The notes beneath the pieces are model-generated. The model ran no database searches and was not told where the DNA came from. It was given only the letters and a program-made list of their open reading frames with translations. This document shows positions 5,663 through 32,000 of a DNA stretch of 32,000 bases, in pieces. The position numbers and the translations under genes are program-made. Each line of letters opens with the position of its first letter. Within the stretch, counting starts at the first letter, position 1. The stretch is from Dickeya dadantii NCPPB 898 (lineage in GTDB: Bacteria > Pseudomonadota > Gammaproteobacteria > Enterobacterales > Enterobacteriaceae): positions 3,071,337-3,103,336 of the forward strand of contig NZ_CM001976.1 of the NCBI RefSeq assembly GCF_000406145.1, read 5' to 3'.

Positions 5663-6388
5663 CTATGAAAAAGCCATCCAACCTGTTTTATTTTTAACTC
5701 GCCTCATACGAAATTTTGCAAAATTTTCCGCATTGTCGAAAAACAAATAAATGTTATAACGAAACACCTGTGCAAACGTTAACCCGGGTGGATACACATA
5801 ACTGTGCCCAGGATAAATGCGGGCCTTTTCGGGTAACATCGCTTTAAGACGTTCAATACTCGAAAATAAGCTTGCCGCATCCGCATAATTGGAACACAGC
5901 CCGCAGCCCTCAATGAACAGCGTATCGCCAGTAAAGACGTGCGGACCGATCCAATAACAAGTACTTCCCGACGTATGGCCCGGCGTAATGATCGGGCGAA
6001 TAAGCATCCCCGCCGCTTCCCAGGAGCGATCTTCAAACATACGCATTGCTGGAATACAGAATCCCGAAGATTCCGCCTCCTTACGTGATATCCACACCGG
6101 GCAACCATGTTTATTCGCCAAAGACTCAGCAAGATCAATATGGTCAGGATGAGCATGGGTGATCAATATTCCCACAAGCTCTGCATTAGCATGCTTCAAC
6201 GCGGTTTCCAGTGTGTCTATTTCCCATGCCGGATCAATCAGCAACGCCTGGTTCAGGCGGCGGTTAAGCACCATATAGTTGTTATTGATAAAGCGACCAC
6301 GGCGAACCTTGAGTGTCGTCACCGCGATATCGTCTGATGACATCGCGCACGCTAACGCCGACGACGTCACCTTATTTTTCAGCCACAT
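5663..6388 (-). CDS. metallo-beta-lactamase-fold hydrolase, glyoxalase-II-like (241 aa)
   Basis: It carries the zinc motif ILITHAHPDHIDL (HxHxDH), a later TPGHTSGS, and GDTLF / PGHSY elements. GGAG lies about 9 nt upstream of the ATG. Confidence 0.85.
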   Translation of the reverse strand: MWLKNKVTSSALACAMSSDDIAVTTLKVRRGRFINNNYMVLNRRLNQALLIDPAWEIDTLETALKHANAELVGILITHAHPDHIDLAESLANKHGCPVWISRKEAESSGFCIPAMRMFEDRSWEAAGMLIRPIITPGHTSGSTCYWIGPHVFTGDTLFIEGCGLCSNYADAASLFSSIERLKAMLPEKARIYPGHSYVYPPGLTFAQVFRYNIYLFFDNAENFAKFRMRRVKNKTGWMAFS

Positions 6389-8059: not shown

Positions 8060-11000
8060 TTACTGGGCTGCGCCCACATGCACAAACTGAAGCCACCATC
8101 GCGCCAGCTCGGTGACATGCGGGGCTTTCAGCACGGTAAAGTGCTGCGCCGGTCCCGCGATGGTTTCCAGCTCTTCAACCCAGCGGGCCCATCCCGCCGC
8201 ATCTTCACCTCGACGATGACGATCCTCGTCGGCATCCCTCCACGGATCGCGCACCTGTATCAGGTTTACCTGGCCGCGGTAGCGTGCCGCCGGCAGATAG
8301 TGCGTTTGTCGCGCGGCATAAAAGGTTTGCCACGAGCCTTGCAGCAGCCGCGAAGACGAATTGACCGGAATTTTCCCCGCGCGATGCAGGTGCTGGTGCA
8401 CGGCAGCCAACACCTGTTCAAGGTCGTGGCTGCCGTAAAGGGATTCATCAATCTCCAGCGTCGTCTCTAAATTGAACCCGATGCTTTCGACATACTCGCG
8501 CAGGCACGCAGCCAGGCTCGGCGTTACGGCGGCATCCATACTGCCGAGAGGCGCTTCGGAATCGATCAGCGTCAACGACGCCACGCGGCCCCCCTGGGCC
8601 GTTAATCGGCGCGCCATGTCGAACGCAACCTGCCCGCCGAAAGAGTGACCAAGCAGATGAATCGGCGTCTTTTCACTGATACCCGCCAGACGAATAGCCG
8701 CCAGGTTACGTGCAGCCGCCGCTTCAACCGACAGCTCAGGGACGTCAACGCCATCAATCCCTTTAGGCAGCAAGCCATAAACCGGCTGCCCGCCGGGCAA
8801 TGCCTGTACGAACGGCATGAAATCCGTAACGCCCGCCCCGGCACCGGGCACGCAAAACAGCGGCGTGCCATTGGCCGCGCCTTTTTGCAAGGTGATTAGC
8901 GGATTGAAATCAGCCGTCGCCGCGGCAACTGAGCGCGCCGCTGGGCGTTGCTTCGCGCCAGCCTCACCGGGCGCCGGATGACAGAGCGCATCAAGCTGAT
9001 CGATCGGCGCATCCGGGGTGGAAACCATCGCTTCAAGCGTGGCGAGATAGCCGACGGCCATACGCTCGGCGGTTTCACGGCGAAACAGATCGACGGCATA
9101 TTCCAGAATGCCATCCATACCCAGCGGCTCACCGTCCTCGCTGTATTTTTCGTACAGCATGAAATAGAGATCCCACTTGGCGTTACCGCTGTGGGCGGGG
9201 TAGACCTGCGCCTTCAGGCCAGGAATATCAAAGGTTTCCGATGGCGCGTTTTGCAGAATCATCATGGTCTGGAACAGCGGATAATGCGACGGCGAGCGCA
9301 CCGGCAATAATTCGCCGACCAGCTTCAGGTAAGGAATATCCTGATGACCATACGAGCTTAACGCCTGTGTGCGTACCCGTTCGAGCACCTCATTAACACG
9401 GGGATTCCCGGAGGTATCGACACGCATCACCCATTGCGTCAGGAAACATCCCACCAGCTCATTCAGCGCGTCGTCGCTACGCCCTGCGGAAACCGCGCCA
9501 AGCGGGATATCTTCGCCCGCGCCCAGTTGGGTGTAATAGATGCCCAGCGCCGCCTGCAATACCATCGACAACGTCATATTGCGATCGCGCGCAAGGGCGC
9601 TCAAACGCCGGTGCAAACGAGCATCGATCTGCAAAGGCAACATCTCGCCGCGATAGCTGGGTTTTGCCGGGCGCGGGTAATCCTCCGGCAGCGCGAGCGT
9701 CGCGGGTAAGCCCGCCAGCGTTGTCTTCCAGTACGCCAACTGTTCTGCAAACAGGCTGTTCGGATCATTCGGATCGCCGAGTAGCTCACGGTGCCACACC
9801 GCGTAGTCGGCATATTGCACCGGCAACGGAGCGAACCGCGGCGCGTGGCCGGCAAGACGCGCCTGATAGGCACGCGTGAGATCCCGTGTCAGCGGTGCCA
9901 GCGAAAACGCATCGCAGGCAATATGGTGGAATAGCATCACCAGAATGTGGGTTTGTGGCCCGACCCGGAGTATCGAAGGACGGAACGGCAGATCAACCGA
10001 CAGATCGAACACCGAGGTAATTGCGGTAAATACCGCCTGATGCACCTGCTCCGCGCTCACTTCACTGTACGGGATGTCGAAATGGACATCGGCGAATGGC
10101 GCGACCACCTGCACCGGTTGCCCCTCCACCACCCCAAAACGGGTGCGCAGCGTTTCATGACGCTCCACCAGATCGTACAGCGCCGCCGTTAACGCCGCCT
10201 GATCCAGCTCGCCCTCAAGCGAGACGACAATCGGCGTATTGAGCGATGAATTATCACCACGGGTATTCTGCCCAACCCACATCAACTGCTGGCCGTAAGA
10301 TACCGGCAGGGGATCGGGGCGCGGCTCGACCTTACGTAGCGGCTGACGGACGTTGGTATGCTCATCAAGCTGTTTCGCCAGACTTGCCACCGTAGGGTTT
10401 TCAAACAGCAGCCGCACCGGCAGTTCAATACCCAAGCGGCTGCGAATACGGGCGATTAATCCGGTAGCCAGAATCGAGTGTCCGCCCATCGCAAAAAAGT
10501 CATCGTCAATGCCGATTTGCGGATGCTGAAGTAATTCGGCATACAGCTCGCACAGCGCCGCCTCCCGCGCGTTACGCGGCGCCCGATAGGCGGTGGCATC
10601 GCTGAATTCCACCGCCGGCAGCGCCTTGCGGTCCACTTTTCCGTTAGCGGTCAGCGGGAATTGCGCCAGCGCCACGATACGCGCCGGCACCATATAGTCA
10701 GGCAAACGTTCACTCAGATAATCCTGCAACGCCGCCTCAGAGGCGTGCAGCCCAGCGCTAACCACGTAGGCGACCAGACGCTTGCCGCCGCCGTTATCCA
10801 CCGCCAGCACCAACGCGTTATCGACGTGCGGATGCTCGGCCAGACGCGCCTCTATCTCGCCCAGCTCAATACGAAAACCACGCAGCTTGACCTGTTGATC
10901 GTTACGCCCCACAAAAACAAGGTTGCCATCGTCCTGATAGCGCACCAGATCGCCGGTGCGATACAGGCGGGTGCGCGGCTCAGCCGAAAACGGATTGGCA

Positions 11001-13779
11001 ACGAAACGTTCGGCGGTCAGCTCGGCACGATTCAGATACCCCAGCGCGACGCCGTCCCCGCCGATATACAGCTCGCCAATGGCGCCTAATGGCGCGGGAT
11101 GCTGATGCTTATCCAGCACGTAAAGCTGGGTATTGCCGATGGGGCGCCCGATAGGAATGCTGGCCGCATTGGCCGCAACGTCATGGATCGGGTAGGTAGT
11201 GGCAAAAGTGGTGGTTTCAGTCGGGCCGTAGCCATTAACCAGCTTCGCCGATGGCGTCGCGCGCAGCACCTGGGCAATGATGTTCGGATCGAGCGCATCG
11301 CCGCCGATGAACAGAGACGTGAACTGCGCAATCACCGGGGCCAGTTCGCTATACAGCTGGTTGAACAAGCCCACGGTCAGCCACATCTGGTTCACGCGAT
11401 GCTGCTGAAGCGTACGCACCAGCCGTGCCGGCGTGAGCAAGGTATCCTGATCAATCACCACGCAGGCGCCGCCATTGAGCAACGGCGCCCATATCTCCAG
11501 CGTACTCGCATCAAAGGCCGTGTTGGCGGCAAGCGCCATGCGATCGCCCGGCGCAAACACGCCGACACCGCTATTAATCACCAGACGATTGATAGCGTAA
11601 TGCGGCACCAATACGCCTTTCGGTATACCGGTGGAACCGGAGGTATAGATGATATAAGCCGGCGCGGCGGCGGCAACCTGCACGTCGACGGCGTCGGCGC
11701 TCGCCTGCGTCACCTCAGCGCTATCGACGTCAATCACCGGCAGATTGATGTCTGCCGCCAGCGCGTGATGGCCGTCGCTGATCAGGAAGCGAGCGGAGCA
11801 ATCCTCGATAACCCAGCTTAACCGCTCTTGCGGCGCCAGTGGATCCAGCGGCACGTAGGTCGCGCCCGCCTTGAGTATGGCAAGCGTCGCCGCCAGCAAT
11901 GCGCTGCCACGCGGCAGCAATAGCGCCACGAAATCCCCCGGCTGTACCCCGCGGGCTACCAGCACCTGCGCCAGTTGGTTGGCGCGCTGATTCAGACGGT
12001 CATAACTCATCCGCGCTTCGCCGTCGATGACCGCAATCGCTTCTGGCGTGCGGGCCGCCTGTTGCTCGAACAACCGGTGAACAGGCTCATTCGCGGGATA
12101 AGCGGCTGCCGTCGCGTTCCAGTCAACCAGCAGTCGCGTGCGTTCGCCAGCGGGCAGAATTTCCAGCGCATGCATCGGCCTGACGGGGTCGCCGTCCAGC
12201 GCATCGGCCAGGCTTTTCATGGTCTGCTGGAGATAGCCGATAATCCGTTGTGCAGACAACGGCGCTGCCGCGAGCACGTTCAGGCGCAACGTCTCACCGA
12301 AGTCATCCACCGACACGGTCAGCGGGTAATCGGTGCGCTCTTCGAAGCCGTGCCATTCCACGTCATCACGTTCACCGGACACATCAACGCGTTCGTCTTC
12401 CGCCTGCTGGTTGTGGCGGTAGTTGAACAGCACATTGAACAAGGCCGTCGGCGGCGCAATACCGCTGCAACGCTGAGCCAAACTGAGAGCAGCGTGTTCA
12501 TGATCCAGTAATGCCGCCAGACGCTTGTGCGTCAAACGGACACTCTCTTCCACGCCGACATTCCCCAGGTCCAGGCGGATCGGCAGCGTATTAATGAACG
12601 GCCCCATGATCTGATCGGCGCCCTCGCCGGCCTGCAATCGGCCCAGCAGGATGGTGCCGAACACCACCGTGTCGCTGTCGCTGGCGCGTGCCATCACCTG
12701 CCCCCACACCAGGTGACAGAGGCTCCCCATGCTGACGCCAAGACGGCGTGCATGAGCACGTAAACGCGCGACGATAGTCGGCTCTACATTGTGGCGCAGC
12801 TCAACAACGCTGGCGTTGTCCACCGCCCCATTAGCCATGCCAAACGCGAGCGTCGGCGCATCGATGTCTCCCAGCATCTGGCGGAAGAATTGCTCGTGCT
12901 GTGCATCGGACGCCCCTGCACGTATCCTGGCGATCAGGCGACGGAACGGTTGCGGCGCGGGCAATAGCTGACCACGCCCCATGATAAAGGCCGTAATATC
13001 GCGGATCATGATCTGCAACGAGGCGATATCATCGACCAGGTGATGCAGCAGCATCAGCATTTCCCAGCGCCCGCTTTGCCGGTCCTGCGCGACATACAGG
13101 CTCAGCAGCGGCGCCTGAGTCAGGTCAATGCGGTAATGCGATGGATGATAGCGTTCGACCAATTGCGCCATGACAGGCCCATTGGCCGGGTCCAGCTCCA
13201 CTTCCGTGACCTGGACGCGGGCGTGACGCAGCACTACCTGTGCCGAGCGCGACAGCCCGCGCGAGAAAAACGCCGTGCGCAGAATGTCATGCCGGTTAAT
13301 AGTGTGCTGAACCGCCGCCACGTATTGCGTCATCACCTCACGGTTAGCCAGTGAGATCCTGGCGAACTGTAGGTAAGGGTCCCCCTTGTCGCTCAACTGG
13401 TGCAGGAAGAGGATCCCTTCCTGCAACGGCGTCAATGCGTAGATATCCTGCACATTCGCTACGCCGCCCGGTACGCTGGCGACAATATGCGCAATATCAG
13501 CCTGAGTGAGATCAATCAGCGGCAGCATATCTGGCGTCAGCCGGGTAGTCTCCGGAGCGATCCGATTCGCCGGCACGCCTGAACCGCTATTCCCGCCTGG
13601 CGAGGATAACTCTCGCCCCTGGCGCAGCGCGTCGACGAGCGCCGGTTTGTGCTCCCGCAACGCCGCCTTGATATCAGGGGTCAACGACCCCTTCGCTGCC
13701 TTGATGACCAGAGATTCGCCATCCAGCGATAAGGCGATATTGGCTTTCCCCAGTCTCTGCCACAGGTCATCGAAATCGA

Positions 13780-13783
<4 letters not shown>
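8060..13783 (-). CDS. NRPS-3: docking-C-A(Val-like)-PCP-C-TE (1907 aa)
   Basis: Motifs present: PLQEGILF, RHDILRTAF, HHLVDDIAS; AYIIYTSGSTGIPKG, NGYGPTETT, YRTGD, LRGFRIELGEIE, PLTANGKVDRKAL; FFAMGGHSI; SYGQQLMW, RHETLRTRF, HHIACDAFS; GHSFGG. An ATGA overlap links it to NRPS-2. Confidence 0.95.
8063..8911 (-). other. NRPS-3 domain: thioesterase (TE)
   Basis: aa ~1625-1907: PLFCVPGAGAGV, the GHSFGG nucleophile elbow, LIDSEAP (Asp) and AGPAQHFTVL (His). Confidence 0.85.
8984..10321 (-). other. NRPS-3 domain: terminal condensation domain (LCL-like) with no cognate A/PCP
   Basis: aa ~1155-1600: LPVSYGQQLMW, ERHETLRTRF, an intact HHIACDAFS, YADYAVW, YWKTTL, HQDIPY, YPLFQTMMIL. The TE follows it directly. 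Confidence 0.85.
10364..10588 (-). other. NRPS-3 domain: PCP
   Basis: aa ~1066-1140: DDFFAMGGHSILATGLIARI. Confidence 0.9.
10616..12130 (-). other. NRPS-3 domain: adenylation, hand-read code DALWFGGTFK (closest to Val codes)
   Basis: aa ~552-1056. I read the ten Stachelhaus positions by aligning to GrsA-PheA from memory: D758 A759 L762 W801 F825 G827 G851 T859 F860 K1049. Confidence 0.7.
12149..13576 (-). other. NRPS-3 domain: condensation (paralogue family with HHLxDDIxS)
   Basis: aa ~70-545: VQDIYALTPLQEGILF, DPYLQ, RHDILRTAF, LLHHLVDDIAS, VVFGTILLGR...MGPFINTLPIRL, FNYRHN. Confidence 0.9.
13616..13783 (-). other. NRPS-3 N-terminal TubC-type (beta-hairpin) docking domain
   Basis: aa 1-56: MIDFDDLWQRLGKANIALSLDGESLVIKAAKGSLTPDIKAALREHKPALVDALRQG. 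This fits the helix / beta-hairpin / helix pattern of TubC-like docking domains. Confidence 0.7.
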
Positions 13784-17271
<3,488 letters not shown>

Positions 17272-17325: not shown

Positions 17326-17352
17326 GCGACGAAACGACCGGGCGACGAAACG
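17326..17352. repeat. 11-bp direct repeat in the NRPS-1/NRPS-2 intergenic gap
   Basis: GCGACGAAACG occurs at 17326-17336 and 17342-17352 with a 5-nt spacer. It lies inside the only sizeable gap between core genes (119 bp). Confidence 0.5.
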
Positions 17353-17390
17353 GCCAGGGTCGTTTGGCAAGCGTGTTGGGAATAGCATCG

Positions 17391-20300
17391 TCACAGGCGA
17401 GTCTCCGCAAGCTCGATGGTTCTGGCCGCAAGGTCTGCCAGAATAGGCGTGTCAAAAAGTGTGCGTATCTCGATGCTGAGCCCTCTTCGACGCAACTGTT
17501 CAATCAAACGCACGGCTAGCAGCGAATAGCCGCCGAGTTCAAAAAAGTGGTCCTGACGTCCGATCCGCTCGACACCCAGAAGTTCTTCCCAGATAGACGC
17601 CATGGTGATTTCCATGCTGCCCTGTGGCGGAACATACGCGCGCCGGGCGAAGGACATCTCATCCGGCGGCACCAGGGCGTTACGGTCTATCTTGCCATTC
17701 GGCGTCAGCGGTAAAGATTTGAGCGTCACGAAGGCGGACGGGACCATATAATCCGGCAACGTATCCTGAAGGTGCTTACGTAACGCCTTACGGCTAAACA
17801 GGGTCTGTACCAGACCTTTGAGCGTCGCCGCGTGTTCCAGCGCCGGCAACGCATTCTCAGGCACGATCCAATCGATCAAACAGGCCACCTCGTTCACACC
17901 GGCCTCCTGTAGCTTCTCCGCCACGGACAGTGCGGATTCCGGCGTACCAATAAATGACAGCTCGCGGGTATAGCGCTTGAAAGCGAACTCCAGCATGCTG
18001 CGTTTATCCGCGCTGGGGAGCGTATCGAGGTGAATGTTCTGCTCTTTGAGCCAGCCCGAAAGTAAACTGAGGTGCCCTTCCAGATAATCAAGGAACGGCC
18101 CTTTCGCCTGTTCCAACACCTCGTCAAGGTTCTCCCCCAGGTAGGTATGAATCATCACCGTCACCGTGCCGGTGCGGGGATCGAATCCCGCGTTTTCACG
18201 CGCCGTGCGGTATATCTCGATATTTTTAGCCAGCTTCTCGATATTCTGCGTGAGCATGTGGGTCAGCAAATGCGCCCCGCTGCGGCCGGCATACTCAAAG
18301 GTTTCCGATGCACCGGCGGCGGTTACCCAAATCGGCAGTTGCTTTTGCACCGGCGCGGGGTAAATCCGGACTGAAATGTCCTCCCCATGACTATCCCGGC
18401 GGGAAACACTGCCGCCCTGCCACAGCGTTTTCAGCTCCTCAATGCCTTTCTGCATCAATTCGCGGCGCTCATCGTAATTCTGCGGCGCCAGGACAAAGTC
18501 CTGCTTATTCCAGCCAGAAGCGACGCCGATGCCGACGCGGCCGTTCGACAGGTTGTCGAGTATCGCCCAGTCTTCCGCCACGCGGAGCGTATCGTGCAAC
18601 GGCAGCACCACGCTGCCGGGACGCAGCTGGATATGGCGTGTTCTGGCCAACAGCGAGGCGCTTAACAGCGCTGGATTGGCGAACAGCCCCCCGACGCGGT
18701 GGAAGTGACGTTCCGGCGTCCACACGGCGGTGAAACCGTGTTTATCACCAAACTCCGCCACCTCCGCGTAATGGTTATAAGCCTGTACGGCATCGCTGCT
18801 GGCGCCGAAGAAGAACAGGCTAAAATCGAGGTTGTCACTGTGGGCCGATGCCTCTGCCACATACTCTTCGGTGGCGCCGGGAACCACATACGCCACCAGC
18901 CGCGTCTCCCCGGAGATATCTTCTCTGGCGACCACCACCGCTTCACGCACCCAGGGATGGCTCAACAACCGCGCTTCGATTTCACCCAGTTCGATACGAT
19001 GCCCACGCAACTTCAGCTGATGGTCGGTACGCCCGAGGAAAATCAGGCGGCCATCGGCCATAAACTGCGCGAAATCCCCGGTACGATAGAGACGAGCCGC
19101 CGGATCGGTTGAGAACGGATCGGAGATAAAACGTTCGGCGGTCAGCTCTGGACGCTGGTGATAACCACGGGCAACCCCGTCGCCGCCGATATACAACTCC
19201 CCGATAGCGCCCATCGGCACCGGTTTGCCATGCTTATCCAGCAGATAGACTTGCGTGTTGGCAATCGGGCGGCCTATCGACTGGTTGTATTGCGTGACGT
19301 CCTCTGCATTGACGCGATTGCAGGTTGACCACACCGTGGTTTCCGTCGGCCCGTAGAGGTTCCACAATGACTCGCCGAAGGCATGCAAACGCGTCGCCAA
19401 ATCGCTGGGCAGCGCTTCGCCGCCGCAAAGGATCTTCAGTTGCTTGTGCGGTGTGGCGTCGGTATCCACCAGCAAGCGCCAGGTGGTCGGCGTGGCTTGC
19501 ATGATGGTGATGTTCAGGGTTTGCAACAGGTTAAGCAGCGCGTGAGGATCCATCGCCTGACTGCGGCTCGCCAGCACAATCGACGCGCCCGTCATCAACG
19601 GCAGATACAGCTCAAGCCCGGCAATATCAAATGAGATGCTGGTGACCGAGAGCAAACAATCTTCGGCGCCGAGGTTGAACAGTGCCTGCATCCCGCTCAG
19701 AAAATTGACCACCTGACGATGCTCAACCATCACCCCTTTCGGCTTGCCGGTAGAACCCGAGGTGTAAATCACGTAAGCCAGGTGGCTGGCGTTGAGCGTC
19801 GCCACATCGGGGTTGCCGCCAGGCAGTTCTTCCCAACGAGCGCCATCACGCTCCAGATCGACCACCGTGACATCACTGCCGGTCGTCGCCCCAAAGACGT
19901 CGCGTCCACGCTGGTCAACCACCAGTACCTTAGGCGTGGCATCCTCAAGAATATAAGCCAGCCGTGTGGTGGGATATTCAGGGTCGAGCGGCACGTAGGC
20001 CCCGCCGGCTTTGAGGGTCGCCAGCAAAGCTACCAGCATCGTTTCAGTGCGTTCCGTACACACCGCTACGCGCGTATCCGGCCTCACCCCCTGGGCTATC
20101 AAATGGTGAGCAAGACGGTTGGCACGCTGATTAAGCTCGGCATAGCTGAGGCGAACGTTCCCCATTTGCAGCGCCAGCGCCTGTGGTCGTTGTTCGACCT
20201 GCCACTCGAACAACTGATGGATCGTCGCCGTCGCCGGGAACGGCACCGCGGTATCATTCCAGGTTTTCAGCAGATGCCGGCGCTCTTCCGGCGGCAGAAT

Positions 20301-23300
20301 ATTGAGTTCATACAGCGGCATTGGCGCGGCCGCCGGAACCCCATCGGCTTCAAGCGCCGCCACCAGGCTACTGATGCTCTGGTGGAAGTAGCCAAACAGG
20401 CGCGCACAAGAAAGCGACTCAATCGCCTGAACGCCAATATCAAACCCATCGCCGAAGTCATCGACAGAGACAGAGATCGGGTAGTTGGTGCGCTCTTCAA
20501 ATCCGTGCCATACCACGCCATCAAATTCGATATCACCTAACACATCAATGTCGGTCGGGCGGTTGCGGCGGTAGTTGAACACGGCGCTGAACATCGGCGT
20601 CGGCGCCACAATCCCACTACTTTGTTGAGCCAGCGACAAGGTGGCGTGTTCATGTTTGATCAGCGCGGTGAGGCGCTGATGCGTCTGGCGCACCGCATCG
20701 GCGGCATAAACCTCGCCGACATCAAGCCGCAACGGCAGCGTCTTGATGCAAGGGCCCATGATTTTGTCACTGTTCTCACCGTGCATACGCCCGGACAGGA
20801 CCGTACCGAACACCACCGTATCGCTGCCGCAGGCAGCGCTTAGGACTCGCGCCCAGCTCAAATGGCACAGGCTACTCACGCTGACGCCGAGGCGGCGAGC
20901 CTGAGCGCGCAGCCGTTGAGCCAGCGGCGCTTCAAGCGAGCGCCGTGTTTCACCGATCCGCTGGCCTTTAAGGTGGCCGTTCTTGAGATTAAACGGCACC
21001 GACGGTTCGGTGATGTCCGCCAGCATGTCGGTGAAAAACGCCGATTGCTGTTGGGTATCGTTACGGCGCTGCAACTGCGCCACGTGATGACGAAATGGCA
21101 ATGCCGCCGGCAAACGCGCTCCCTTGTCATGGAGGAACGCCTGAATGTCGGAGAGCAAAATCTGTAGCGAGGCAATGTCATCCACCAAATGATGGATATA
21201 CATCAAGGCTTCCCAGCGGGCCTGCGCTTCATCATAGGCCACCACCATGTGCAGCAACGGCGGCTGCGTGAGGTCGATACGGTTGACGTGAGGATCAAAG
21301 CGCGCCTTCATCTGCTCAACGACCGGGCCATCCTGAGCATCAAACGTGAGCGCCGCAACATGCAAACGCGCGTGGCGGAGCACGACCTGCACAGGCGTTT
21401 CCACCCCTTCCCAGATAAACGCGGTGCGCAAGATATCATGACGATCAACCACGCATTGGATAGCCTCAAGATAGCGATCCAGCGTCTGCCGGTGCGTAAA
21501 CGACAGATGACCACACTGAAGGTAAGGGTCGCCGGCTTCATCGAACAGATGGTGGACCAGAATGCCTTCCTGCAACGGCGCCAGCGCATAGATATCCTGA
21601 ATATTGGCGATGCCTCCAGGTATGCGCGAAACGATCTGGTCTATTTGCTGTTGAGAAAGCGACACTAACGGGAAAAGCGCGGGATGAAGCGCGGTGGTCG
21701 CCGGCGTGACCACATTCTCCGGGATGACGAACGCTGAGGAAGCATCGTCCTCAAGCCTGATTTGCGCAGCAAGATCGGCCAGAACGGGATGCGCGAAGAG
21801 GGTGGGCACATCGGTATACAACTGCTGCTCACGGAGCGCTGCCTGCAGTTGCATCGCCAGCAATGAATGCCCGCCCAGTTCGAAGAAATTGTCCTGCCGC
21901 CCGACCTGCTCAACGCCGAGCATTGTCCGCCACAGCTGCGCCAGAATAGATTCCGTACCGGCGTTCGGCGCTTCAAAGTCGCGCTGCACGTAAGCACTGT
22001 CGTCCGGTAGCGGCAAGGCTTTGCGGTCGATCTTGCCATTGGCCGTCAGCGGCAGCGATTCCATCACCACAAACGCCGCCGGGATCATATAGCTGGGCAG
22101 TTGCGTGGCGAGCACCTCGCGCCATTGCGCCAGCGCGCCATTGCCGCACGTCGCCTCTGGCACCACATAGGCCACCAGACGGGCCTCGCCACCATCGGGC
22201 GTAATGCCGATGACGGTGGCGTCTTTGATGTGCTCAAGCGCCGCAATACGCGACTCGATTTCACCAAGCTCAATGCGATACCCGCTCAGTTTGATTTGGT
22301 GATCGCGGCGGCCAAGAAACTCAATGCGGCCATCGTCAAACCAGCGCCCGATATCGCCGGTACGGTAGACTCTGGCCCCGGCGACCCAGGGGTCGGCAAT
22401 AAACTGCTGGGCCGTCAGTTCAGGGCGATTCATGTATCCCACCGCGACGCCTTCGCCGCCGATCCAGATTTCACCCGCCATACCCGGCGCGCAAAGCTGA
22501 CCCAGATTATCGACCACGTACATACGGGTATTGGCGATCGGTCGCCCAATACTCAGGCGAGTATCCTGGCTGTGCTCAAAACCGCGCATCCAGGCCGACG
22601 ACATAATGGTGGTTTCCGTCGGGCCGTAGCCATTGATGTAACGGCAGCGCTCGCTCCAGCGTTCAATCAGCCCGAGCGACGGCGCCGACCCCGCGGTCAG
22701 AATGGTCATGCCTTCAGGCACGCGTGCGGGATCCAGGTGCGTGAGATACGGCGGCGGGAAGGCCGAGAAACGAATGTCGTTTTCGGTCATGTACGCCATC
22801 AACGCGGGCGGGTTCTGAATCAACGCATTCGACAGCAGGTGCAGTTCGCAGCCGCGCGTCAAGGTACCGAAAATCTCGCCCGCCGAGGCATCAAAGGTAT
22901 AGGGCGCGAACTGGGTGATCGGTTGCCCGGCGCTAAAAATCCCGATGTGTTCGCACCAGGCACAGAAATTGATCAGGCTGCGATGCGCGATCTCTACGCC
23001 TTTCGGCGTACCGGTGGTGCCAGAGGTATAGATGATGTAGGCAATAGTGTGCGAATCGATAGTGTGCGAATAGATAGTCTCAGCGGGGTTATCCTCACGC
23101 GACCCGCCATCCGTTTGCGCCTGCTCCAGATAATCCTCAACCAACAGCAAGGTGCTGCTTTCGTCCGCGCTGAAACTCGACCGATCGGCCCGGCTGGTCA
23201 GCGTCCAGCGCACTTGCGCATCGTTAATGATGAACGCGCGACGCTCGCCCGGCGCATCCAGGCCGACAGGCACATAAGCGGCGCCCAGCTTGATGATGCC

Positions 23301-24311
23301 CAGCATGGCGGCGATCAGGTTCGGCGTTTTGTCCATACTCAGCACGATACGATCGCCCTGGGTCACACCGACGCGGCGCAGCCCTGCCGCAATCCGTTCG
23401 GCACGTTCGGCCAACTGCCGATAGCTTAACCGCACGTCGCCTGCCACCAGCGCGGTGGCCTCGTTTCTGGCCGCCACTTGCTCGGCAAACAGCGCATAGA
23501 GCGAACGATCCAACGCCACGTCTAGCTCAGTCGCATTCCACTCATGAATAACGCGTTCAATTTCTGCGTTACTGAGCAGCGACTGTTCACCCAGCGTGCG
23601 CTCACTGCGCTGTACAAAGCTGGACAACAGCTGCTGCAGGCGATTGAGAATGTTATGCGCATCCGCTTCGGTCATGTCGCCGTGGCGATAATGCAGCGCT
23701 AATGACAGCGTGGCCCCGGTCCGCACAATAAGATGCAGCGGCACGTGCGGCGCGCGATGCTCATTTTCCGAGCCCGACTCGTCATACACACTGATCAGCG
23801 AGTCGAAAAGCGGTGGATTCGATGGGGAGCCTACTCCGGGCGAAAGGGCATCAGGTATCGGTTCGGCATGGCGCTGATGCTGCTCAAACACTGAGGCGAT
23901 ATCGTGAAACCAGTCGCGCAACGCGAGACTGGCATCAATGTGCATGCGTAGCGGCAAGGCGTGGTATTCCCCCCCGTCATGGGCTGGGAACCGTTTGCCG
24001 AACAGCACCTCATCCTCACCGCTGTACTTGCTCAGCAACAAACCCCATGCCGCCGTCATCAGCACGTCCCCGGTGACGGACTCACGCTGCGCCAGCGCCA
24101 GCAGTTCGTTACTCAACGCCCGCTCGACCTGGGAGACGAGCACGCGGACGTCCTGCGCAGAGGAGGAAGCGGCGGTCCCGGCATCCTCGCGCTCAATAGC
24201 ATTAACAAGGCTGACGTTTGCCGTTCTTGACGCCCCGGTAAGGTATCGCTGCCAATACGCCGCGGCGGTGTCCTTACGCGACAAGAGCATATTCTCCTGC
24301 ATGATAGCCAT
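17391..24311 (-). CDS. NRPS-1: orphan C-lobe-A(unknown)-PCP-C-A(Gly)::LLM monooxygenase-PCP with docking tail (2306 aa)
   Basis: Motifs present: AYIIYTSGTTGTPKG, NGYGPTETT, YRTGD, PLTANGKIDRKAL; FFELGGHSL; PLQEGILVHH, RHDILRTAF, HHLVDDIAS; LAYVIYTSGSTGKPKG, NLYGPTETT, LRGHRIELGEIE; DFSLFFFG...GFTAVWTPERHF; LPLTPNGKIDRNAL; FFELGGYSL. The tail is ARTIELAETRL. GGGAG lies about 9 nt upstream of the ATG. Confidence 0.95.
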   Translation of the reverse strand: MAIMQENMLLSRKDTAAAYWQRYLTGASRTANVSLVNAIEREDAGTAASSSAQDVRVLVSQVERALSNELLALAQRESVTGDVLMTAAWGLLLSKYSGEDEVLFGKRFPAHDGGEYHALPLRMHIDASLALRDWFHDIASVFEQHQRHAEPIPDALSPGVGSPSNPPLFDSLISVYDESGSENEHRAPHVPLHLIVRTGATLSLALHYRHGDMTEADAHNILNRLQQLLSSFVQRSERTLGEQSLLSNAEIERVIHEWNATELDVALDRSLYALFAEQVAARNEATALVAGDVRLSYRQLAERAERIAAGLRRVGVTQGDRIVLSMDKTPNLIAAMLGIIKLGAAYVPVGLDAPGERRAFIINDAQVRWTLTSRADRSSFSADESSTLLLVEDYLEQAQTDGGSREDNPAETIYSHTIDSHTIAYIIYTSGTTGTPKGVEIAHRSLINFCAWCEHIGIFSAGQPITQFAPYTFDASAGEIFGTLTRGCELHLLSNALIQNPPALMAYMTENDIRFSAFPPPYLTHLDPARVPEGMTILTAGSAPSLGLIERWSERCRYINGYGPTETTIMSSAWMRGFEHSQDTRLSIGRPIANTRMYVVDNLGQLCAPGMAGEIWIGGEGVAVGYMNRPELTAQQFIADPWVAGARVYRTGDIGRWFDDGRIEFLGRRDHQIKLSGYRIELGEIESRIAALEHIKDATVIGITPDGGEARLVAYVVPEATCGNGALAQWREVLATQLPSYMIPAAFVVMESLPLTANGKIDRKALPLPDDSAYVQRDFEAPNAGTESILAQLWRTMLGVEQVGRQDNFFELGGHSLLAMQLQAALREQQLYTDVPTLFAHPVLADLAAQIRLEDDASSAFVIPENVVTPATTALHPALFPLVSLSQQQIDQIVSRIPGGIANIQDIYALAPLQEGILVHHLFDEAGDPYLQCGHLSFTHRQTLDRYLEAIQCVVDRHDILRTAFIWEGVETPVQVVLRHARLHVAALTFDAQDGPVVEQMKARFDPHVNRIDLTQPPLLHMVVAYDEAQARWEALMYIHHLVDDIASLQILLSDIQAFLHDKGARLPAALPFRHHVAQLQRRNDTQQQSAFFTDMLADITEPSVPFNLKNGHLKGQRIGETRRSLEAPLAQRLRAQARRLGVSVSSLCHLSWARVLSAACGSDTVVFGTVLSGRMHGENSDKIMGPCIKTLPLRLDVGEVYAADAVRQTHQRLTALIKHEHATLSLAQQSSGIVAPTPMFSAVFNYRRNRPTDIDVLGDIEFDGVVWHGFEERTNYPISVSVDDFGDGFDIGVQAIESLSCARLFGYFHQSISSLVAALEADGVPAAAPMPLYELNILPPEERRHLLKTWNDTAVPFPATATIHQLFEWQVEQRPQALALQMGNVRLSYAELNQRANRLAHHLIAQGVRPDTRVAVCTERTETMLVALLATLKAGGAYVPLDPEYPTTRLAYILEDATPKVLVVDQRGRDVFGATTGSDVTVVDLERDGARWEELPGGNPDVATLNASHLAYVIYTSGSTGKPKGVMVEHRQVVNFLSGMQALFNLGAEDCLLSVTSISFDIAGLELYLPLMTGASIVLASRSQAMDPHALLNLLQTLNITIMQATPTTWRLLVDTDATPHKQLKILCGGEALPSDLATRLHAFGESLWNLYGPTETTVWSTCNRVNAEDVTQYNQSIGRPIANTQVYLLDKHGKPVPMGAIGELYIGGDGVARGYHQRPELTAERFISDPFSTDPAARLYRTGDFAQFMADGRLIFLGRTDHQLKLRGHRIELGEIEARLLSHPWVREAVVVAREDISGETRLVAYVVPGATEEYVAEASAHSDNLDFSLFFFGASSDAVQAYNHYAEVAEFGDKHGFTAVWTPERHFHRVGGLFANPALLSASLLARTRHIQLRPGSVVLPLHDTLRVAEDWAILDNLSNGRVGIGVASGWNKQDFVLAPQNYDERRELMQKGIEELKTLWQGGSVSRRDSHGEDISVRIYPAPVQKQLPIWVTAAGASETFEYAGRSGAHLLTHMLTQNIEKLAKNIEIYRTARENAGFDPRTGTVTVMIHTYLGENLDEVLEQAKGPFLDYLEGHLSLLSGWLKEQNIHLDTLPSADKRSMLEFAFKRYTRELSFIGTPESALSVAEKLQEAGVNEVACLIDWIVPENALPALEHAATLKGLVQTLFSRKALRKHLQDTLPDYMVPSAFVTLKSLPLTPNGKIDRNALVPPDEMSFARRAYVPPQGSMEITMASIWEELLGVERIGRQDHFFELGGYSLLAVRLIEQLRRRGLSIEIRTLFDTPILADLAARTIELAETRL
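17421..17639 (-). other. NRPS-1 domain: PCP2 (core GGYSL instead of the usual GGHSL)
   Basis: aa ~2225-2297: QDHFFELGGYSLLAVRLIEQL. Confidence 0.85.
17667..20294 (-). other. NRPS-1 domain: interrupted adenylation domain A2, hand-read code DILQLGLVWK (Gly)
   Basis: aa ~1340-2215. Positions read: D1562 I1563 L1566 Q1605 L1628 G1630 L1652 V1660 W1661 K2207. This matches the canonical Gly code DILQLGLIWK at 9/10. Cores A1-A8 lie before the insert and A10 after it. Confidence 0.8.
17802..18839 (-). other. NRPS-1 domain: luciferase-like (FMN-dependent) monooxygenase inserted in A2
   Basis: aa ~1825-2170 (about 345 aa): NLDFSLFFFGASS, AEFGDKHGFTAVWTPERHF, GRVGIGVASGW, PIWVTAAG. It sits between RLVAYVV and LPDYMVPSAFV, the same position as the MOx insert of MtaG/MelG-type modules. 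Confidence 0.8.
20307..21728 (-). other. NRPS-1 domain: condensation (same paralogue family)
   Basis: aa ~862-1335: IQDIYALAPLQEGILVHH, DPYLQ, RHDILRTAF, YIHHLVDDIAS, VVFGTVLSGR, FNYRRN. Confidence 0.9.
21756..21980 (-). other. NRPS-1 domain: PCP1
   Basis: aa ~778-852: QDNFFELGGHSLLAMQLQAAL. Confidence 0.9.
22008..23549 (-). other. NRPS-1 domain: adenylation A1, hand-read code DAGALAGIMK (no confident match)
   Basis: aa ~255-768. Positions read: D474 A475 G478 A517 L538 A540 G561 I569 M570 K760. The scaffold is strikingly GrsA-PheA-like (PPPYLTHLDP, ILTAGSAPS), but 239 is Gly and 278 is Ala. Confidence 0.6.
23043..23078. repeat. in-frame 15-bp tandem duplication inside A1
   Basis: AGTGTGCGAATCGAT (23046-23060) and AGTGTGCGAATAGAT (23061-23075), 14/15 identical, with partial copies on both sides. 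They encode TIYSH-TIDSH-TIA immediately before core A3 (YIIYTSGTTG). Confidence 0.85.
23562..24311 (-). other. NRPS-1 N-terminal orphan C-lobe (C-terminal half of a condensation domain, no HHxxxD)
   Basis: aa 1-250 begin at the YWxxxL motif (AAAYWQRYL) and continue with LMTAAWGLLLSKYSGEDEVLFG, ALPLRM and PLFDSLISVY. No N-lobe and no catalytic His motif are present. Confidence 0.7.
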
Positions 24312-24314
24312 TGG

Positions 24315-26201
24315 TTATGCTCCCTCTGTGACAACTTGCCTGGAATGGTTTTTTAAAACATTCAGTAAGTTGGATACGCTTTCGGCGTTCCTGCCGAATT
24401 GATTGATGATCGCGCCGTGCTGAATACGCGCGGCAAAACCGTATTTGATGAAGGTTGACAGAGTGCCGGTTGGGCTGAGATCGACAAAAAACGTCTGGTT
24501 TTTCTCAGCCAACGCCTGCATTACGCCGTAGAAATCGACAGGCTCGCGCAAGACTCGCCAGAAATACTCGCTGTCCCATTGTTCAACCGCAGTACCTAAC
24601 ATGGCGGAGTACACCGGCATTACGGGGGCGTTTTTCGGCAAGGTATCGACCAAGGCTCGGAAATCGTGCTCGATAGCCGCTATCCCGGACGAGTGGAAGG
24701 GTTGCTCAACCGGCAGCAGCATCGAGATAATATTCTGCTGCGTCAGGCGCTGTTTGAGAGCCGACAGGCTCGCCATAGCACCGCTGACCACAAAATTATT
24801 CTGGAAGTTAATACTGGCTAACTCGGCGCCCTGATAAAGCGCGGCATTGGCATGGAAGTGCGCCACCGGCGCCAGCACGCTCATCATCCCGCCGCCGGCG
24901 GTTTTGTTACTCAGCAAGTGCGCCTGAGACACCACCAGTTTCATGGCGTCATCCAGCGTCAATACACCGGCCACGACAGCCGCGATGCACTCGCCCAGGC
25001 TGTATCCCAGCACGGCGTCAGGTTCGATCCCTTCTGCTTTGAGCATACCGGTCAGGCTGACGCCAATGCTGAGCAACGCCACATTGGACTGCGCCACATC
25101 AGAGAACGGCAGGTGGTGGCGGGCGTCGTCATACAGCGCCTCCAGAAGACCGTGGCCGGTGTGTTGACGACACAGGGCGTCACACCTGTCCATCTGGCTG
25201 CGAAAGGTACTATTACGACGATAAAGCTCACGCCCCATGCCGTAATACTGTGACCCCTGCCCCCCGAACATAAACACCACACGAGGGGTGGCGGATGGTG
25301 CCGCTGGCGCTCTGGCAACGTTTTTTACCGTTGGCTTACCCGGCAACGCCATCGGCTGTGCTTTTATTTTCTCAAACAGGCTGGTCAGTACCTGCCCGGG
25401 TCCGATTTCGTGCTGTTTAACTTCGCCGGACGCCAGCAGCCGCGACAGACTTTCGTACCAACGAACGGGATGACTTATCTGGCGCGTTAACAAGTCAAGA
25501 TAATCGGATTCTGGATAATCGAGCGCTGTGTAGTTGGAAATAACCCGCGCATTGAGCGGATTGAAAGTAAAGCGTTGCGCAAATTGTGCAAACTGCGCTT
25601 CGATATCTCGCATATAGCGAGAGTGAAAAGCCGCACTCACGTTTAGCCTGACGTAGCGTGCGCCGGCATCCGTAAACAGCGTTTCGCAGGCAACGATGTC
25701 GTCATGAAGACCCGAAATGACGATTTGCTGGGCACTGTTGATGTTGGCGATATCAATGCCGCTAAACGGCGACGCAGCGAGAAGCTCCGCGACCCGGTTC
25801 AGCTCGATGCCCACGATGGCGGCCATCGCGCCGCGCGGCGCTTTCGACATCAACATGCCGCGCTCTCTGACCAGCGCGACGCCGGTTGCAAAATCAAACG
25901 CCCCCGCGGCAAACAGCGCGGCAAACTCCCCCAGACTATGACCCGCGTAGCAATCCGGCGCATCCAATCCGTTTTGTCGACTGGCGAGAACCCCGAGCGC
26001 TGAGACAACAAACAAAGCCGGCTGGGTGAACATCGTCTCACCCAGCACACCCTGAGGATCGTTGAGGCATAGCTCGCGAATTGAGAAACCGAGCACCTCA
26101 TCGGCCTCGCTGACGAGCCTGGGGAAACGCTCGAACAGCGCATTCCCCATCCCTTTGTGCTGCGATCCCTGACCAGGAAATACCCAAATTGAAGAAGACA
26201 T
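24315..26201 (-). CDS. tandem trans-acting acyltransferase AT1-AT2 (628 aa from the ATG at 26201)
   Basis: There are two FabD-like halves. I prefer the ATG at 26201 (AGGAG 5 nt upstream; MSSSIWVFPGQGSQ) over the GTG at 26234. The stop lies 3 nt before the NRPS-1 ATG. Confidence 0.9.
   Translation of the reverse strand: MSSSIWVFPGQGSQHKGMGNALFERFPRLVSEADEVLGFSIRELCLNDPQGVLGETMFTQPALFVVSALGVLASRQNGLDAPDCYAGHSLGEFAALFAAGAFDFATGVALVRERGMLMSKAPRGAMAAIVGIELNRVAELLAASPFSGIDIANINSAQQIVISGLHDDIVACETLFTDAGARYVRLNVSAAFHSRYMRDIEAQFAQFAQRFTFNPLNARVISNYTALDYPESDYLDLLTRQISHPVRWYESLSRLLASGEVKQHEIGPGQVLTSLFEKIKAQPMALPGKPTVKNVARAPAAPSATPRVVFMFGGQGSQYYGMGRELYRRNSTFRSQMDRCDALCRQHTGHGLLEALYDDARHHLPFSDVAQSNVALLSIGVSLTGMLKAEGIEPDAVLGYSLGECIAAVVAGVLTLDDAMKLVVSQAHLLSNKTAGGGMMSVLAPVAHFHANAALYQGAELASINFQNNFVVSGAMASLSALKQRLTQQNIISMLLPVEQPFHSSGIAAIEHDFRALVDTLPKNAPVMPVYSAMLGTAVEQWDSEYFWRVLREPVDFYGVMQALAEKNQTFFVDLSPTGTLSTFIKYGFAARIQHGAIINQFGRNAESVSNLLNVLKNHSRQVVTEGA
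24360..25283 (-). other. AT2: AT-like domain lacking the malonyl-binding Arg (Gln instead)
   Basis: Motifs: VVFMFGGQGSQ, the GYSLGE nucleophile, QPFHS. The position 25 residues after the Ser (FabD R117) is Gln in LVVSQAHLL. Confidence 0.75.
25359..26189 (-). other. AT1: FabD-like malonyl-CoA:ACP transacylase domain
   Basis: Motifs: IWVFPGQGSQ, GHSLGE, Arg at Ser+25 (LVRERG), SAAFHS. Confidence 0.8.
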
Positions 26202-26272
26202 AAATCTCCTATTACTGTTCCCTTGGACTGTCACTTAACGTTGCTTGTTTATCCCAACAGCGACTCGTTAAT

Positions 26273-26542
26273 TCAGGACTTGATTGCTTCCGCCGGTAGA
26301 TGGGCTTCAATCGTGCCGATCAAATCCCCGAGCGTGTAAATCCCGCGCTTGTCACCGTCGTTTACCTTGATGTGGAGCCGCTTCTCAATCTCGTACCAGG
26401 ACTCAAGCATCTCGATCGAATCCACACCCAGTTCACCGCCGATAAATGAATCCAGGTCCACGACATCAGGGGTAAATCCGGTGTTTTTGATGCCGTTAAT
26501 AATGTCGAGAACAACGGAGAGAATGTCTTTCTGAGCGTCCAT
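26273..26542 (-). CDS. free-standing acyl carrier protein (89 aa)
   Basis: It carries the phosphopantetheine-attachment motif GGELGVDSIEMLE and has an acidic helical composition. It lies 24 nt downstream of the oxoamine synthase. Confidence 0.9.
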   Translation of the reverse strand: MDAQKDILSVVLDIINGIKNTGFTPDVVDLDSFIGGELGVDSIEMLESWYEIEKRLHIKVNDGDKRGIYTLGDLIGTIEAHLPAEAIKS

Positions 26543-26566: not shown

Positions 26567-27811
26567 TTAGAGCGCGTCAAACTCGCGCGCAACGTCAGTA
26601 ATAATGTCAACGGCTTGATCGATCTCTTCCCGGGTATGGGAAGACATCACGGAGATACGCAGACGTTCTTTATCAGGAGGGACCATCGGGTATTCCATGA
26701 TATTGGCGAACAGGCCGCGTTCAAAAAGACGGCGGTTTATGTTGCCCACCACGGAGATTTTCCCGAAGAAGACGGGAATGATCCCCGACTCGCCGCGAAG
26801 AATGTTGAAGCCTTTGGATTCCAGTTGGTCCTGCATGTAGCGCACGTTGTCATGCAGCAGCGCAATGCGTTCCGGCTCGCGTTCCATCACGTCCAACGCC
26901 GCGGAAATAGCCGCAATGGTCGGCTGCGCTAAACCCGAGGTAAACAGGTAAGGATAAGAGAAGTTTCGCAGCATAAAGATATGCTCGCGGCTGCCGGAGA
27001 TGAACGCGCCCTGCGCGCCGAGCGATTTGCTGCAGGTGGACATACGCAAATCAACCTGACCCAGCAGGTCTAAATGCTCAAGCGTTCCCTTGCCGGTTTG
27101 CCCTAAGGTGCCTAAGCCGTGAGCGTCATCGAGAATGGTGATGATGTCGTGCTCCCGGCAGATATCGATGTAACGCTTGAGATCGATGATCGAGCCGTCC
27201 GTAGAACGCACGCCTTCAACCGTGGAAAATATTTGCGTATGAGGTTTCAAACGCGCCCGAATTTTAGGCAACATCTGTTCAAACTCATCCAGCCGCTCGG
27301 GATCGAAGGTAAAGAACGGCACGTTGGTCATTTTGACCGCGTTGATCACGCTGGCATGGCTGTTCTGGTCATAGATGATGATATCGTTGCGATTCATCAA
27401 TCCATTCACCCAACACAGGTTCGCCATATAACCACTCGGCAGCAGCACCGCGTCTTCATGGCCGGCTAACGCCGCCAGACGCGTCTCAAGATCCCGATGT
27501 TGCCTGGTGTAACCGGAAAATGCCGGCGACCCGCCGGTACCAATACCGTATTTTTCTACCGCTTCGACTACCTTATTTTTCACATAAGGATGGTTAGCCA
27601 GACCGAGATAGCTGTTTGAACCAAACACCAATACATTTCTGAAGTCGTCGCTATGCAGGTCTTTGTACTGCATGCGCGCATCAACCGGCCCCACGCCCTG
27701 GCGTCCGAACATGAAGCCTTTTTCCAGCTCTTTCAAATAGGTGCCATAGCGTAATTTCACGCGTTCCTTGAAAGGCTTACGTTCAAGTTCGATCAGATCA
27801 TGAAAATCCAT
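26567..27811 (-). CDS. PLP-dependent alpha-oxoamine synthase (BioF / KBL / serine palmitoyltransferase family, 414 aa)
   Basis: Motifs present: FGSNSYLGL, DQNSHASVI, ILDDAHGLG, and the PLP-lysine motif STCSKSLGAQGAF. Confidence 0.92.
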   Translation of the reverse strand: MDFHDLIELERKPFKERVKLRYGTYLKELEKGFMFGRQGVGPVDARMQYKDLHSDDFRNVLVFGSNSYLGLANHPYVKNKVVEAVEKYGIGTGGSPAFSGYTRQHRDLETRLAALAGHEDAVLLPSGYMANLCWVNGLMNRNDIIIYDQNSHASVINAVKMTNVPFFTFDPERLDEFEQMLPKIRARLKPHTQIFSTVEGVRSTDGSIIDLKRYIDICREHDIITILDDAHGLGTLGQTGKGTLEHLDLLGQVDLRMSTCSKSLGAQGAFISGSREHIFMLRNFSYPYLFTSGLAQPTIAAISAALDVMEREPERIALLHDNVRYMQDQLESKGFNILRGESGIIPVFFGKISVVGNINRRLFERGLFANIMEYPMVPPDKERLRISVMSSHTREEIDQAVDIITDVAREFDAL

Positions 27812-31998: not shown

Positions 31999-32000
31999 AT

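Follow-up and report, generated by a model that had tools for sequence, protein, structure and literature searches.

Module 4 of the solanimycin synthetase in Dickeya dadantii NCPPB 898: a glycine adenylation domain of SolF interrupted by a luciferase-like monooxygenase, a probable glycine alpha-hydroxylase

Identification of the locus

A 32,000-nucleotide stretch of the genome of Dickeya dadantii NCPPB 898 (contig NZ_CM001976.1, positions 3,071,337 to 3,103,336; hereafter, the window) was analyzed with a focus on the nonribosomal peptide synthetase (NRPS) SolF, in which a luciferase-like FMN monooxygenase (LLM) domain interrupts the second adenylation (A) domain, A2. This locus corresponds to the D. 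dadantii solanimycin (sol) gene cluster, which has already been published and is not new. By exact-sequence look-up, SolF (WP_038911491.1), SolG (WP_038911490.1), SolI, SolJ, SolK, and SolB of the window were identical to D. dadantii database entries. The entry for SolG is named "solanimycin non-ribosomal peptide synthetase SolG", and those for SolI and SolJ also bear solanimycin names. The 90% clusters of SolG, SolI, and SolB include D. solani proteins, and the clusters of SolG, SolI, and SolJ carry solanimycin names. SolI and SolJ scored 935 and 467 bits on the NCBI protein-specific models NF041802 and NF041804, passing the cut-offs of 850 and 350, respectively. SolF was 94% identical (2174 of 2306 residues) to SolF of D. 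solani (P0193).

Every large gene of the window is encoded by the minus strand. The cluster contains genes for a trans-acyltransferase (trans-AT) polyketide synthase (PKS; solA), a short-chain dehydrogenase/reductase (SDR; solB), a pyridoxal phosphate (PLP) enzyme (solC), an acyl carrier protein (ACP; solD), a tandem AT (solE), three NRPS proteins (solF, solG, solH), a P450 (solI), a hydrolase (solJ), a MaoC dehydratase (solK), and a MATE pump (solL). The order solA-B-C-D-E-F-G-H-I-J-K-L, the gene sizes, and the domain strings agree with the published Table 1, in which SolF is given as A-P-C-A-ox-P (PMC9765074). SolG, SolI, SolJ, SolK, and SolB have exactly the published lengths of 1163, 428, 241, 180, and 329 amino acids (aa), respectively. 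The coordinates of the features are summarized in Table 1; the NRPS domains are denoted C (condensation), A, PCP (peptidyl carrier protein), E (epimerization), and TE (thioesterase).

When genome contigs were scanned, matches were obtained in Rouxiella and in a Serratia metagenome-assembled genome, with 79% identity. The Rouxiella cluster is syntenic with that of the window (79% identity) and keeps the A8-LLM-A9 layout, the Gly code, the GGYSL carrier core, and the docking tails described below. Of 15 Dickeya strains assayed, about half have been reported to show activity (mBio solanimycin paper).

Table 1. Features of the sol locus within the window (ACP, acyl carrier protein; KS, ketosynthase; ORF, open reading frame)
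Feature	Position	Strand	Basis
solJ, MBL-fold hydrolase	5663..6388	-	NF041804
solI, cytochrome P450	6645..7931	-	NF041802
solH, dock-C-A(Val)-PCP-C-TE	8060..13783	-	Pfam; code DALWFGGTFK
solG, dock-C-A(Ser)-PCP, module proposed to iterate five times	13780..17271	-	Pfam; code DVWHVSLIDK; WP_038911490.1
solF ortholog, 2306-aa NRPS, (C-like fragment)-A1-PCP1-C-A2(LLM)-PCP2-docking tail	17391..24311	-	ORF; Pfam; WP_038911491.1
PCP2, core GGYSL, Ser2263, and docking tail ...LADLAARTIELAETRL	17394..17606	-	Pfam PP-binding, second stretch; motif at aa 2260
A2 C-terminal remnant, cores A9 LPDYMVP and A10 NGKIDR	17667..17801	-	Motifs at aa 2185 and aa 2205
LLM insert, SolF aa 1825-2170	17802..18839	-	TIGR04020; Pfam PF00296
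A2 N-terminal part, cores A1-A8, Gly-specific	18840..20210	-	Pfam AMP-binding, aa 1368-1718; motifs
Gly-module C domain, His motif in the form HHLVDD (variant)	20436..21599	-	Pfam Condensation, aa 905-1292; IHHLVDDIASL in translation
A1, code DAGALAGIMK	22017..23489	-	Motifs A3 aa 423, A8 aa 667, A10 aa 758
solE, tandem trans-AT/acyl hydrolase	24315..26234	-	Pfam Acyl_transf_1, two stretches; PMC9765074
solD, free-standing 89-aa carrier protein	26273..26542	-	DSIE carrier-like motif by eye; PMC9765074 gives 89 aa
solC, PLP enzyme, alpha-oxoamine synthase family (predicted)	26567..27811	-	Pfam Aminotran_1_2; NCBIfam bioF/KBL/SPT, E 1e-84 to 1e-86
solB, NAD-dependent SDR	27863..28852	-	Pfam Epimerase; exact match to D. 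dadantii protein
solA 3' part, trans-AT PKS (ACP-KS-linker-C-like end), continues past the window edge	28849..32000	-	Pfam; weak Condensation match, last 400 aa

Organization of SolF and position of the insert

The initial annotation had recognized an LLM at 17802-18839 from three hallmark motifs, and this was borne out. The translation of this segment on the minus strand consists of 346 aa and contains DFSLFFFG, GFTAVWTPERHF, and GIGVASGW. Pfam Bac_luciferase (PF00296) matched aa 1831-2140 of SolF with an E value of 4e-45, flanked by AMP-binding and AMP-binding_C/PP-binding. Motif mapping placed the A2 cores A3, A5, A7, A8 (GRTDHQLKLRGHRIELGEIE), A9 (LPDYMVP), and A10 (NGKIDR) at aa 1511, 1651, 1742, 1760, 2185, and 2205, respectively. 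A8 and A9 were 425 aa apart in A2 but 71 aa apart in A1, which is uninterrupted, indicating that the LLM separates A8 from A9. The insert had earlier been assigned to the interval between A8 and A10; its location within A2 downstream of A8 stood, and the site was narrowed to A8-A9. A2 is an interrupted A domain of the A8-A9 type, with the full set of A cores, A8 directly upstream of the LLM, and A9 and A10 directly downstream of it.

Specificity codes were obtained by alignment to a GrsA-PheA segment, which reproduces the published code DAWTIAAICK. In this register, the code of A2 was DILQLGLVWK, corresponding to Gly, the same as that previously read by hand, and the codes of SolG and SolH (Table 1) corresponded to Ser and Val, respectively. 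PCP2 is followed by a short tail that ends SolF, a TubC_N docking domain opens both SolG and SolH according to Pfam, and the TE is located at the end of SolH. The Pfam domains, the codes, and the SolF tail agree with the earlier description of a module that is not terminal, has a docking tail on its PCP, and is followed by Ser and Val modules; the latter lie on two further NRPS proteins.

The code of A1 matched no standard specificity, and no clear prediction of its substrate has been made (PMC10204066). A1 may activate a free polyene beta-hydroxy-alpha-amino acid, which would fit the production of the free amino acid by SolC and SolB. The His motif of the C domain of the Gly module has been given as HHxxDDx (PMC10204066). 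In aa 1-250 of SolF (23562-24311, minus strand), a Condensation match was found (E = 6e-11) that starts near profile position 190 and is thus limited to the C-terminal half. The last 399 aa of SolA (28852-30048, minus strand) matched Condensation with an E value of 4e-4, below the gathering score, likewise only with the C-terminal half of the profile; the end of SolA has been described as carrying an NRPS-like domain of unknown type (PMC10204066). The N-terminus of SolF and the C-terminus of SolA are truncated C-like regions at the PKS-to-NRPS hand-over.

Family membership and integrity of the LLM

The insert scored 433 bits on TIGR04020 (MupA/Atu3671 family FMN-dependent luciferase-like monooxygenase; cut-off, 244 bits) with an E value of 9e-130 and covered profile positions 1-334 of 341. 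The matches to Bac_luciferase and TIGR04020 are far beyond chance. In an alignment of the insert with 119 homologs, 62 of the 68 family columns with at least 95% conservation were kept, and the six changes look conservative. A profile search and a check of the FMN-binding residues had been recommended in the initial annotation, which named a lack of conserved residues as evidence against an LLM; no such lack was found. The family-invariant residues kept in the insert, which may form the FMN-binding or active site, included E43-R44-H45-F46, G75-S76, G100-R101, G109-W110, D114-F115, and R125. Position 54, which is Pro in 100% of the family, is changed in the insert; the same change is present in the orthologous SolF of D. 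solani, whose strain is a solanimycin B producer. The insert and the D. solani LLM were identical at 334 of 346 positions, and none of the 12 differences fell on a conserved column.

In an alignment with LuxA, E43 and H45 were conserved, and H44, C106, and R107 of LuxA were replaced by R, A, and S in SolF, the same residues as in PuwE. The closest solved structure was that of the PuwE oxygenase domain (6KET; E = 4e-95). The top sequence matches to the insert were mostly stand-alone proteins of 340-430 aa with about 50% identity, and A(LLM) homologs, analyzed by protein motifs, also came from Collimonas (P0210) and Cellvibrio (P0217). In the SolF 90% cluster, the LLM is kept by every listed full-length member, from D. 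dadantii and D. solani. An 1823-aa protein (P0206) and other short members of this cluster were considered as natural LLM-less variants and rejected; they are N-terminally truncated gene calls that retain the LLM.

Solanimycin chemistry and comparison with known systems

In D. solani, solF has been reported to be needed for solanimycin production. The products of the D. solani cluster are solanimycin A (m/z 963.480) and solanimycin B (m/z 979.474) (Murphy et al. 2023, PMC10204066). The central part of solanimycin is Gly-(Dha)5, where Dha is dehydroalanine, and labelled glycine enters the Gly residue (PMC10204066). Solanimycin B is solanimycin A with an additional hydroxyl on the Gly alpha-carbon (+16 Da); the tandem mass spectrometry (MS/MS) fragments at 706.3367 for A and 705.3060 for B, differing by NH3 versus O, place the extra oxygen at this carbon (PMC10204066). 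The authors assigned this step to SolF module 4, with its flavin monooxygenase domain as the hydroxylase, and described the carbinolamide as remaining uncleaved while chain extension goes on, unlike in MtaG/MelG. They attributed solanimycin A to skipped hydroxylation and considered that a longer residence on module 4 favours B (PMC10204066). Survival of alpha-hydroxyglycine in the backbone, one of the outcomes envisaged in the initial annotation, is therefore already published for the 94%-identical SolF of D. solani. Known natural products very rarely contain acyclic alpha-hydroxyglycine, and the only other such case found by these authors was spergualin.

SolF of D. solani MK10 is orthologous to SolF of the window and has the same domain order, A-PCP-C-A(ox)-PCP (PMC9765074; PMC10204066). 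Its LLM is 96.5% identical and lies at A8-A9, and the Gly code, the GGYSL core, the docking tail (AARTIELAETRL), and the neighbouring genes solA-L are shared. The two proteins differ in length, with 2300 aa in D. solani and 2306 aa in D. dadantii (6 alignment gaps), and in the 12 LLM substitutions at non-conserved positions.

MtaG and MelG of the myxothiazol and melithiazol pathways, compared here by their description in PMC10204066, were rightly proposed earlier as the precedent for comparison. Their Gly A domain, too, has a flavin monooxygenase inserted in it, which hydroxylates carrier-bound Gly at the alpha-carbon. In contrast to SolF, they carry the insert at A4-A5 (a8-a9 in SolF according to the same authors) in a terminal module with a TE, and the carbinolamide collapses to leave a terminal amide, whereas the SolF module is internal and the hydroxyglycine is kept (PMC10204066). 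Among the features of the MtaG/MelG type, SolF has the Gly A domain; it has neither the A4-A5 insertion nor a last module with PCP-TE.

PuwE likewise has a TIGR04020-type LLM in a megasynthase, aligned with the insert over 327 aa, and is proposed to hydroxylate alpha to a thioester, making the 2-hydroxy group of the 3-amino-2-hydroxy acyl chain of puwainaphycin (PMC4219810). Its LLM lies between PKS and NRPS modules, not within an A domain, and acts on a beta-amino fatty acyl substrate, not on glycine. MupA, OnnC, CalD, MndB, and palmerolide module 9 also belong to TIGR04020 and are assigned as alpha-hydroxylases or Baeyer-Villiger-type oxidants of carrier-bound intermediates; they differ from SolF in being stand-alone or PKS-embedded, in using polyketide substrates, and in having no A-domain insertion. 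The usual assignment for a TIGR04020 domain in a PKS line is that of an alpha-hydroxylase acting on a carrier-bound thioester (PMC8739492), and hydroxylation of the carbon alpha to a carrier-protein thioester is the characterized or proposed reaction of the family members. Skyllamycin also keeps alpha-hydroxyglycine in a finished nonribosomal peptide; there, the enzyme is a stand-alone flavin monooxygenase, and a macrocycle stabilizes the carbinolamide (PMC10204066).

Distribution of LLM-interrupted A domains

SolF aa 1740-2215 (A7/A8, LLM, A9, and A10) was used as a query against 1.84 billion cluster representatives, and the best 150 representatives (P0327-P0476) were annotated with phmmer probes derived from the window's own domains. 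This probe-based annotation is rough, and the 150 proteins are top scorers, not a random sample. The LLM was located inside an A domain in 109 of them, at A8-A9 in 40 and at A4-A5 in 69; in the latter, the A4 motif FDIS was upstream of the LLM, and Q278 and A5 were downstream. Strict Gly-like codes were found in 81 of the 109, and several more had near-Gly variants. About seven A8-A9 cases had the beta-Ala-like code VDWVVSLADK, and these modules would predict alpha-hydroxy-beta-alanine (isoserine) units.

The PCP was followed by a C domain in 38 and an E domain in 16 of the 109 proteins (54 together) and directly by a TE in only one, and the protein ended within 150 aa after the PCP, as in SolF, in 34. 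The 16 E-followed modules all had a GGDSI carrier core, and most had E1/E2 motifs. In sequence space, internal placement is the rule and the terminal MtaG-type arrangement the exception. The novelty implied by the initial annotation was not upheld, as the module had already been described and internal LLM-interrupted Gly modules are common in databases.

The GGYSL core of PCP2 (17412-17606, minus strand) had been singled out as unusual, and it is: it was found in 1 of 92 PCP cores after LLM-interrupted modules, among which GGHSL and GGDSI dominate. The core is kept in the sol clade, namely in D. solani, Rouxiella, and a metagenomic protein (P0207), with the Ser retained. Neither a functional correlate of this core nor a link to the LLM was found.

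Proposed function of module 4 and alternative explanations

We consider it highly probable that the Gly module is module 4 of the solanimycin line and that its embedded LLM hydroxylates the Gly alpha-carbon, with alpha-hydroxyglycine being retained in solanimycin B. In the proposed pathway, A2 would adenylate glycine and load PCP2, and the C domain of the Gly module would transfer the polyene beta-hydroxy-alpha-amino acyl group from upstream to this glycine. With reduced FMN and O2, the LLM would hydroxylate the N-acyl-glycyl thioester on PCP2 at its glycine alpha-carbon in a fraction of the turnovers. The C domain of SolG would take both the hydroxylated and the unhydroxylated chains, giving solanimycin A with Gly and solanimycin B with alpha-hydroxy-Gly, both continued by five Dha, Val, and the polyketide tail. 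The carbinolamide would remain in the product, and chain release would be independent of it. Hydroxylation most likely takes place after N-acylation, because a free alpha-hydroxy-aminoacyl thioester (hemiaminal) would collapse to glyoxylate and ammonia, and this timing agrees with the authors' remark on residence on module 4 (PMC10204066). By analogy, the D. dadantii enzyme would behave as the D. solani one, and we infer that the LLM, rather than another oxygenase, installs the hydroxyl.

Several points weigh against this assignment. The ratio of A to B is about 60:40, so that hydroxylation is incomplete (PMC10204066), and the position of the hydroxyl was deduced by MS/MS on D. solani material that was semi-purified and unstable, and not on material of this strain (PMC10204066). 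The cluster also encodes the P450 SolI, which has a proposed role (PMC10204066). Since neither a domain-specific mutant nor an in vitro assay of the SolF monooxygenase was found in the solanimycin papers (PMC9765074, PMC10204066), the assignment of the LLM is based on bioinformatics and product mass. Pfam and NCBIfam scans revealed no flavin reductase among the cluster genes in the window, and the reduced FMN is therefore presumably supplied by a housekeeping flavin reductase.

SolI or an enzyme encoded outside the cluster could instead be the Gly hydroxylase, with the LLM oxidizing elsewhere (e.g., C-2 of the polyketide-derived amino acid) or being silent, but we regard this explanation as very unlikely. 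The partial hydroxylation, the still hypothetical role of SolI, and the stand-alone flavin monooxygenase of skyllamycin (PMC10204066) would accommodate another oxygenase. However, the LLM sits in the Gly module itself and adjoins PCP2, and LLM insertion is strongly tied to Gly codes in many unrelated NRPSs, as seen in the 81 strict Gly-like codes above. In addition, the chemistry assigned to the family is hydroxylation alpha to the thioester, and the conserved LLM residues are retained, with the six changed columns looking conservative, all of which favours the LLM as the hydroxylase.

Another outcome raised by the initial annotation was fragmentation of the chain at this residue, for which we found no support. 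In such a scheme, the finished or nascent chain would break at the carbinolamide into the primary amide of the polyene amino acid and a glyoxylyl-(Dha)5-Val-polyketide, and the break would serve as a maturation, prodrug, or self-destruct step. Acyclic carbinolamides are intrinsically labile and are helped by rings according to the authors, the activity of solanimycin is lost on purification, solanimycin B breaks at exactly this bond in the gas phase to give the 705.3060 fragment, and MtaG/MelG, with the same enzyme family and a Gly substrate, end in cleavage (PMC10204066). Nevertheless, B is a main product alongside A and occurs intact, its hydroxyglycine being flanked by the complete chain on either side, and XCMS comparison of sol+ and sol- extracts gave no sol-dependent ions beyond A, B, and their adducts (PMC10204066). 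Solanimycin A, which has no hydroxyl, is the more abundant, and the semi-pure mixture of A and B is potently active (PMC10204066). Furthermore, some Dickeya sol clusters have no LLM: in two strains (Dickeya sp. FVG1-MFV-O17 and FVG10-MFV-A16), SolF is devoid of a stretch of about 500 aa that matches the monooxygenase domain (PMC9765074). Among the homologous interrupted modules, the 54 of 109 followed by C or E, against a single one followed directly by TE, also argue against cleavage. We judge programmed breakage to be very unlikely, and the same applies to its slower form, in which B would collapse non-enzymatically outside the cell to the polyene amino-acid amide and a glyoxylyl-poly-Dha electrophile and so act as a functional weak link. 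If breakage did occur, the LLM would determine how long the antifungal lasts or which of its species is active, which could explain part of the instability that has blocked structure elucidation.

That the LLM of this D. dadantii strain is a decayed, non-functional relic is hardly credible: although some Dickeya strains have lost the domain (PMC9765074) and 12 substitutions separate it from the D. solani LLM, its reading frame is intact, its TIGR04020 score is far over the cut-off, none of the substitutions affects a conserved column, and every full-length protein listed for the 90% cluster retains it.

Other features of the sol locus

The tails of SolF (...DTPILADLAARTIELAETRL; 17394-17453, minus strand) and SolG (...DSPTLAELSARTIELDEMRL; 13783-13842, minus strand) were identical at 14 of 20 positions, and the PCP plus tail at 51 of 71. 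The TubC_N-type docks of SolG (17104-17271, minus strand) and SolH (13616-13783, minus strand) were identical at 31 of 56 positions, and the same likeness of tails and docks was observed in Rouxiella. Since the SolF and SolG tails are alike and the SolG and SolH docks are alike, the SolG tail should dock on the N-terminus of SolG itself as well as on SolH. This likeness, which is not mentioned in the solanimycin paper, supports, at the level of sequence, the published proposal that SolG protomers hand the chain on head-to-tail and so add five serines. The solG and solH genes share a 4-base stop/start overlap (13780-13783), which suggests possible translational coupling, and the solF-solG spacer is 119 bases long (17272-17390).

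SolC is named an aminotransferase or transaminase in both papers (PMC9765074, PMC10204066). Its best family matches were alpha-oxoamine synthases, namely bioF, glycine C-acetyltransferase, and serine palmitoyltransferase, with 289, 287, and 283 bits, respectively (E about 1e-85). Judged from these scores, SolC probably belongs to the alpha-oxoamine synthase family and not to the transaminases. If SolC joins the C14 hexaenoyl thioester to an amino acid by a Claisen-type condensation, the aminomethyl ketone shunt of the solB mutant would be direct, and the proposed P450-plus-transaminase route would be needless. Labelling data argue against glycine as the donor for SolC (PMC10204066).

In the left flank of the window, a phage lysis cassette was detected with PHROGs at 316-1717 (plus strand), consisting of holin (316-627), endolysin (617-1105), Rz spanin (1102-1542), and embedded Rz1 (1379-1717). 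Genes for tRNA-Leu(taa) and tRNA-Cys(gca) adjoin solL (2891-3059, minus strand); an Rfam scan of the window yielded these two tRNAs and nothing else. The G+C content falls from about 0.60 to 0.46-0.53 at the left flank. The phage lysis genes, the tRNAs, and the drop in G+C content are consistent with horizontal acquisition of the sol cluster, and the flanking of sol clusters by leuZ, cysT, holins, and lysozymes has already been reported (mBio solanimycin paper).

Possible retention of alpha-hydroxyglycine in other nonribosomal peptides

In 17 NRPSs of other bacteria (P0239, P0357, P0358, P0332, P0343, and 12 others), a Gly-coded A(LLM) was followed by a PCP with a GGDSI core and then by an E domain (E1, PIQxWF; E2, HHxxxDG). 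Epimerization downstream of a Gly module would be pointless unless hydroxylation had made the alpha-carbon stereogenic and the residue were kept in the chain. This arrangement suggests that retained and stereo-controlled alpha-hydroxyglycine could be widespread in uncharacterized peptides, and that the retained residue may be much more widespread in nonribosomal peptides than known chemistry suggests.

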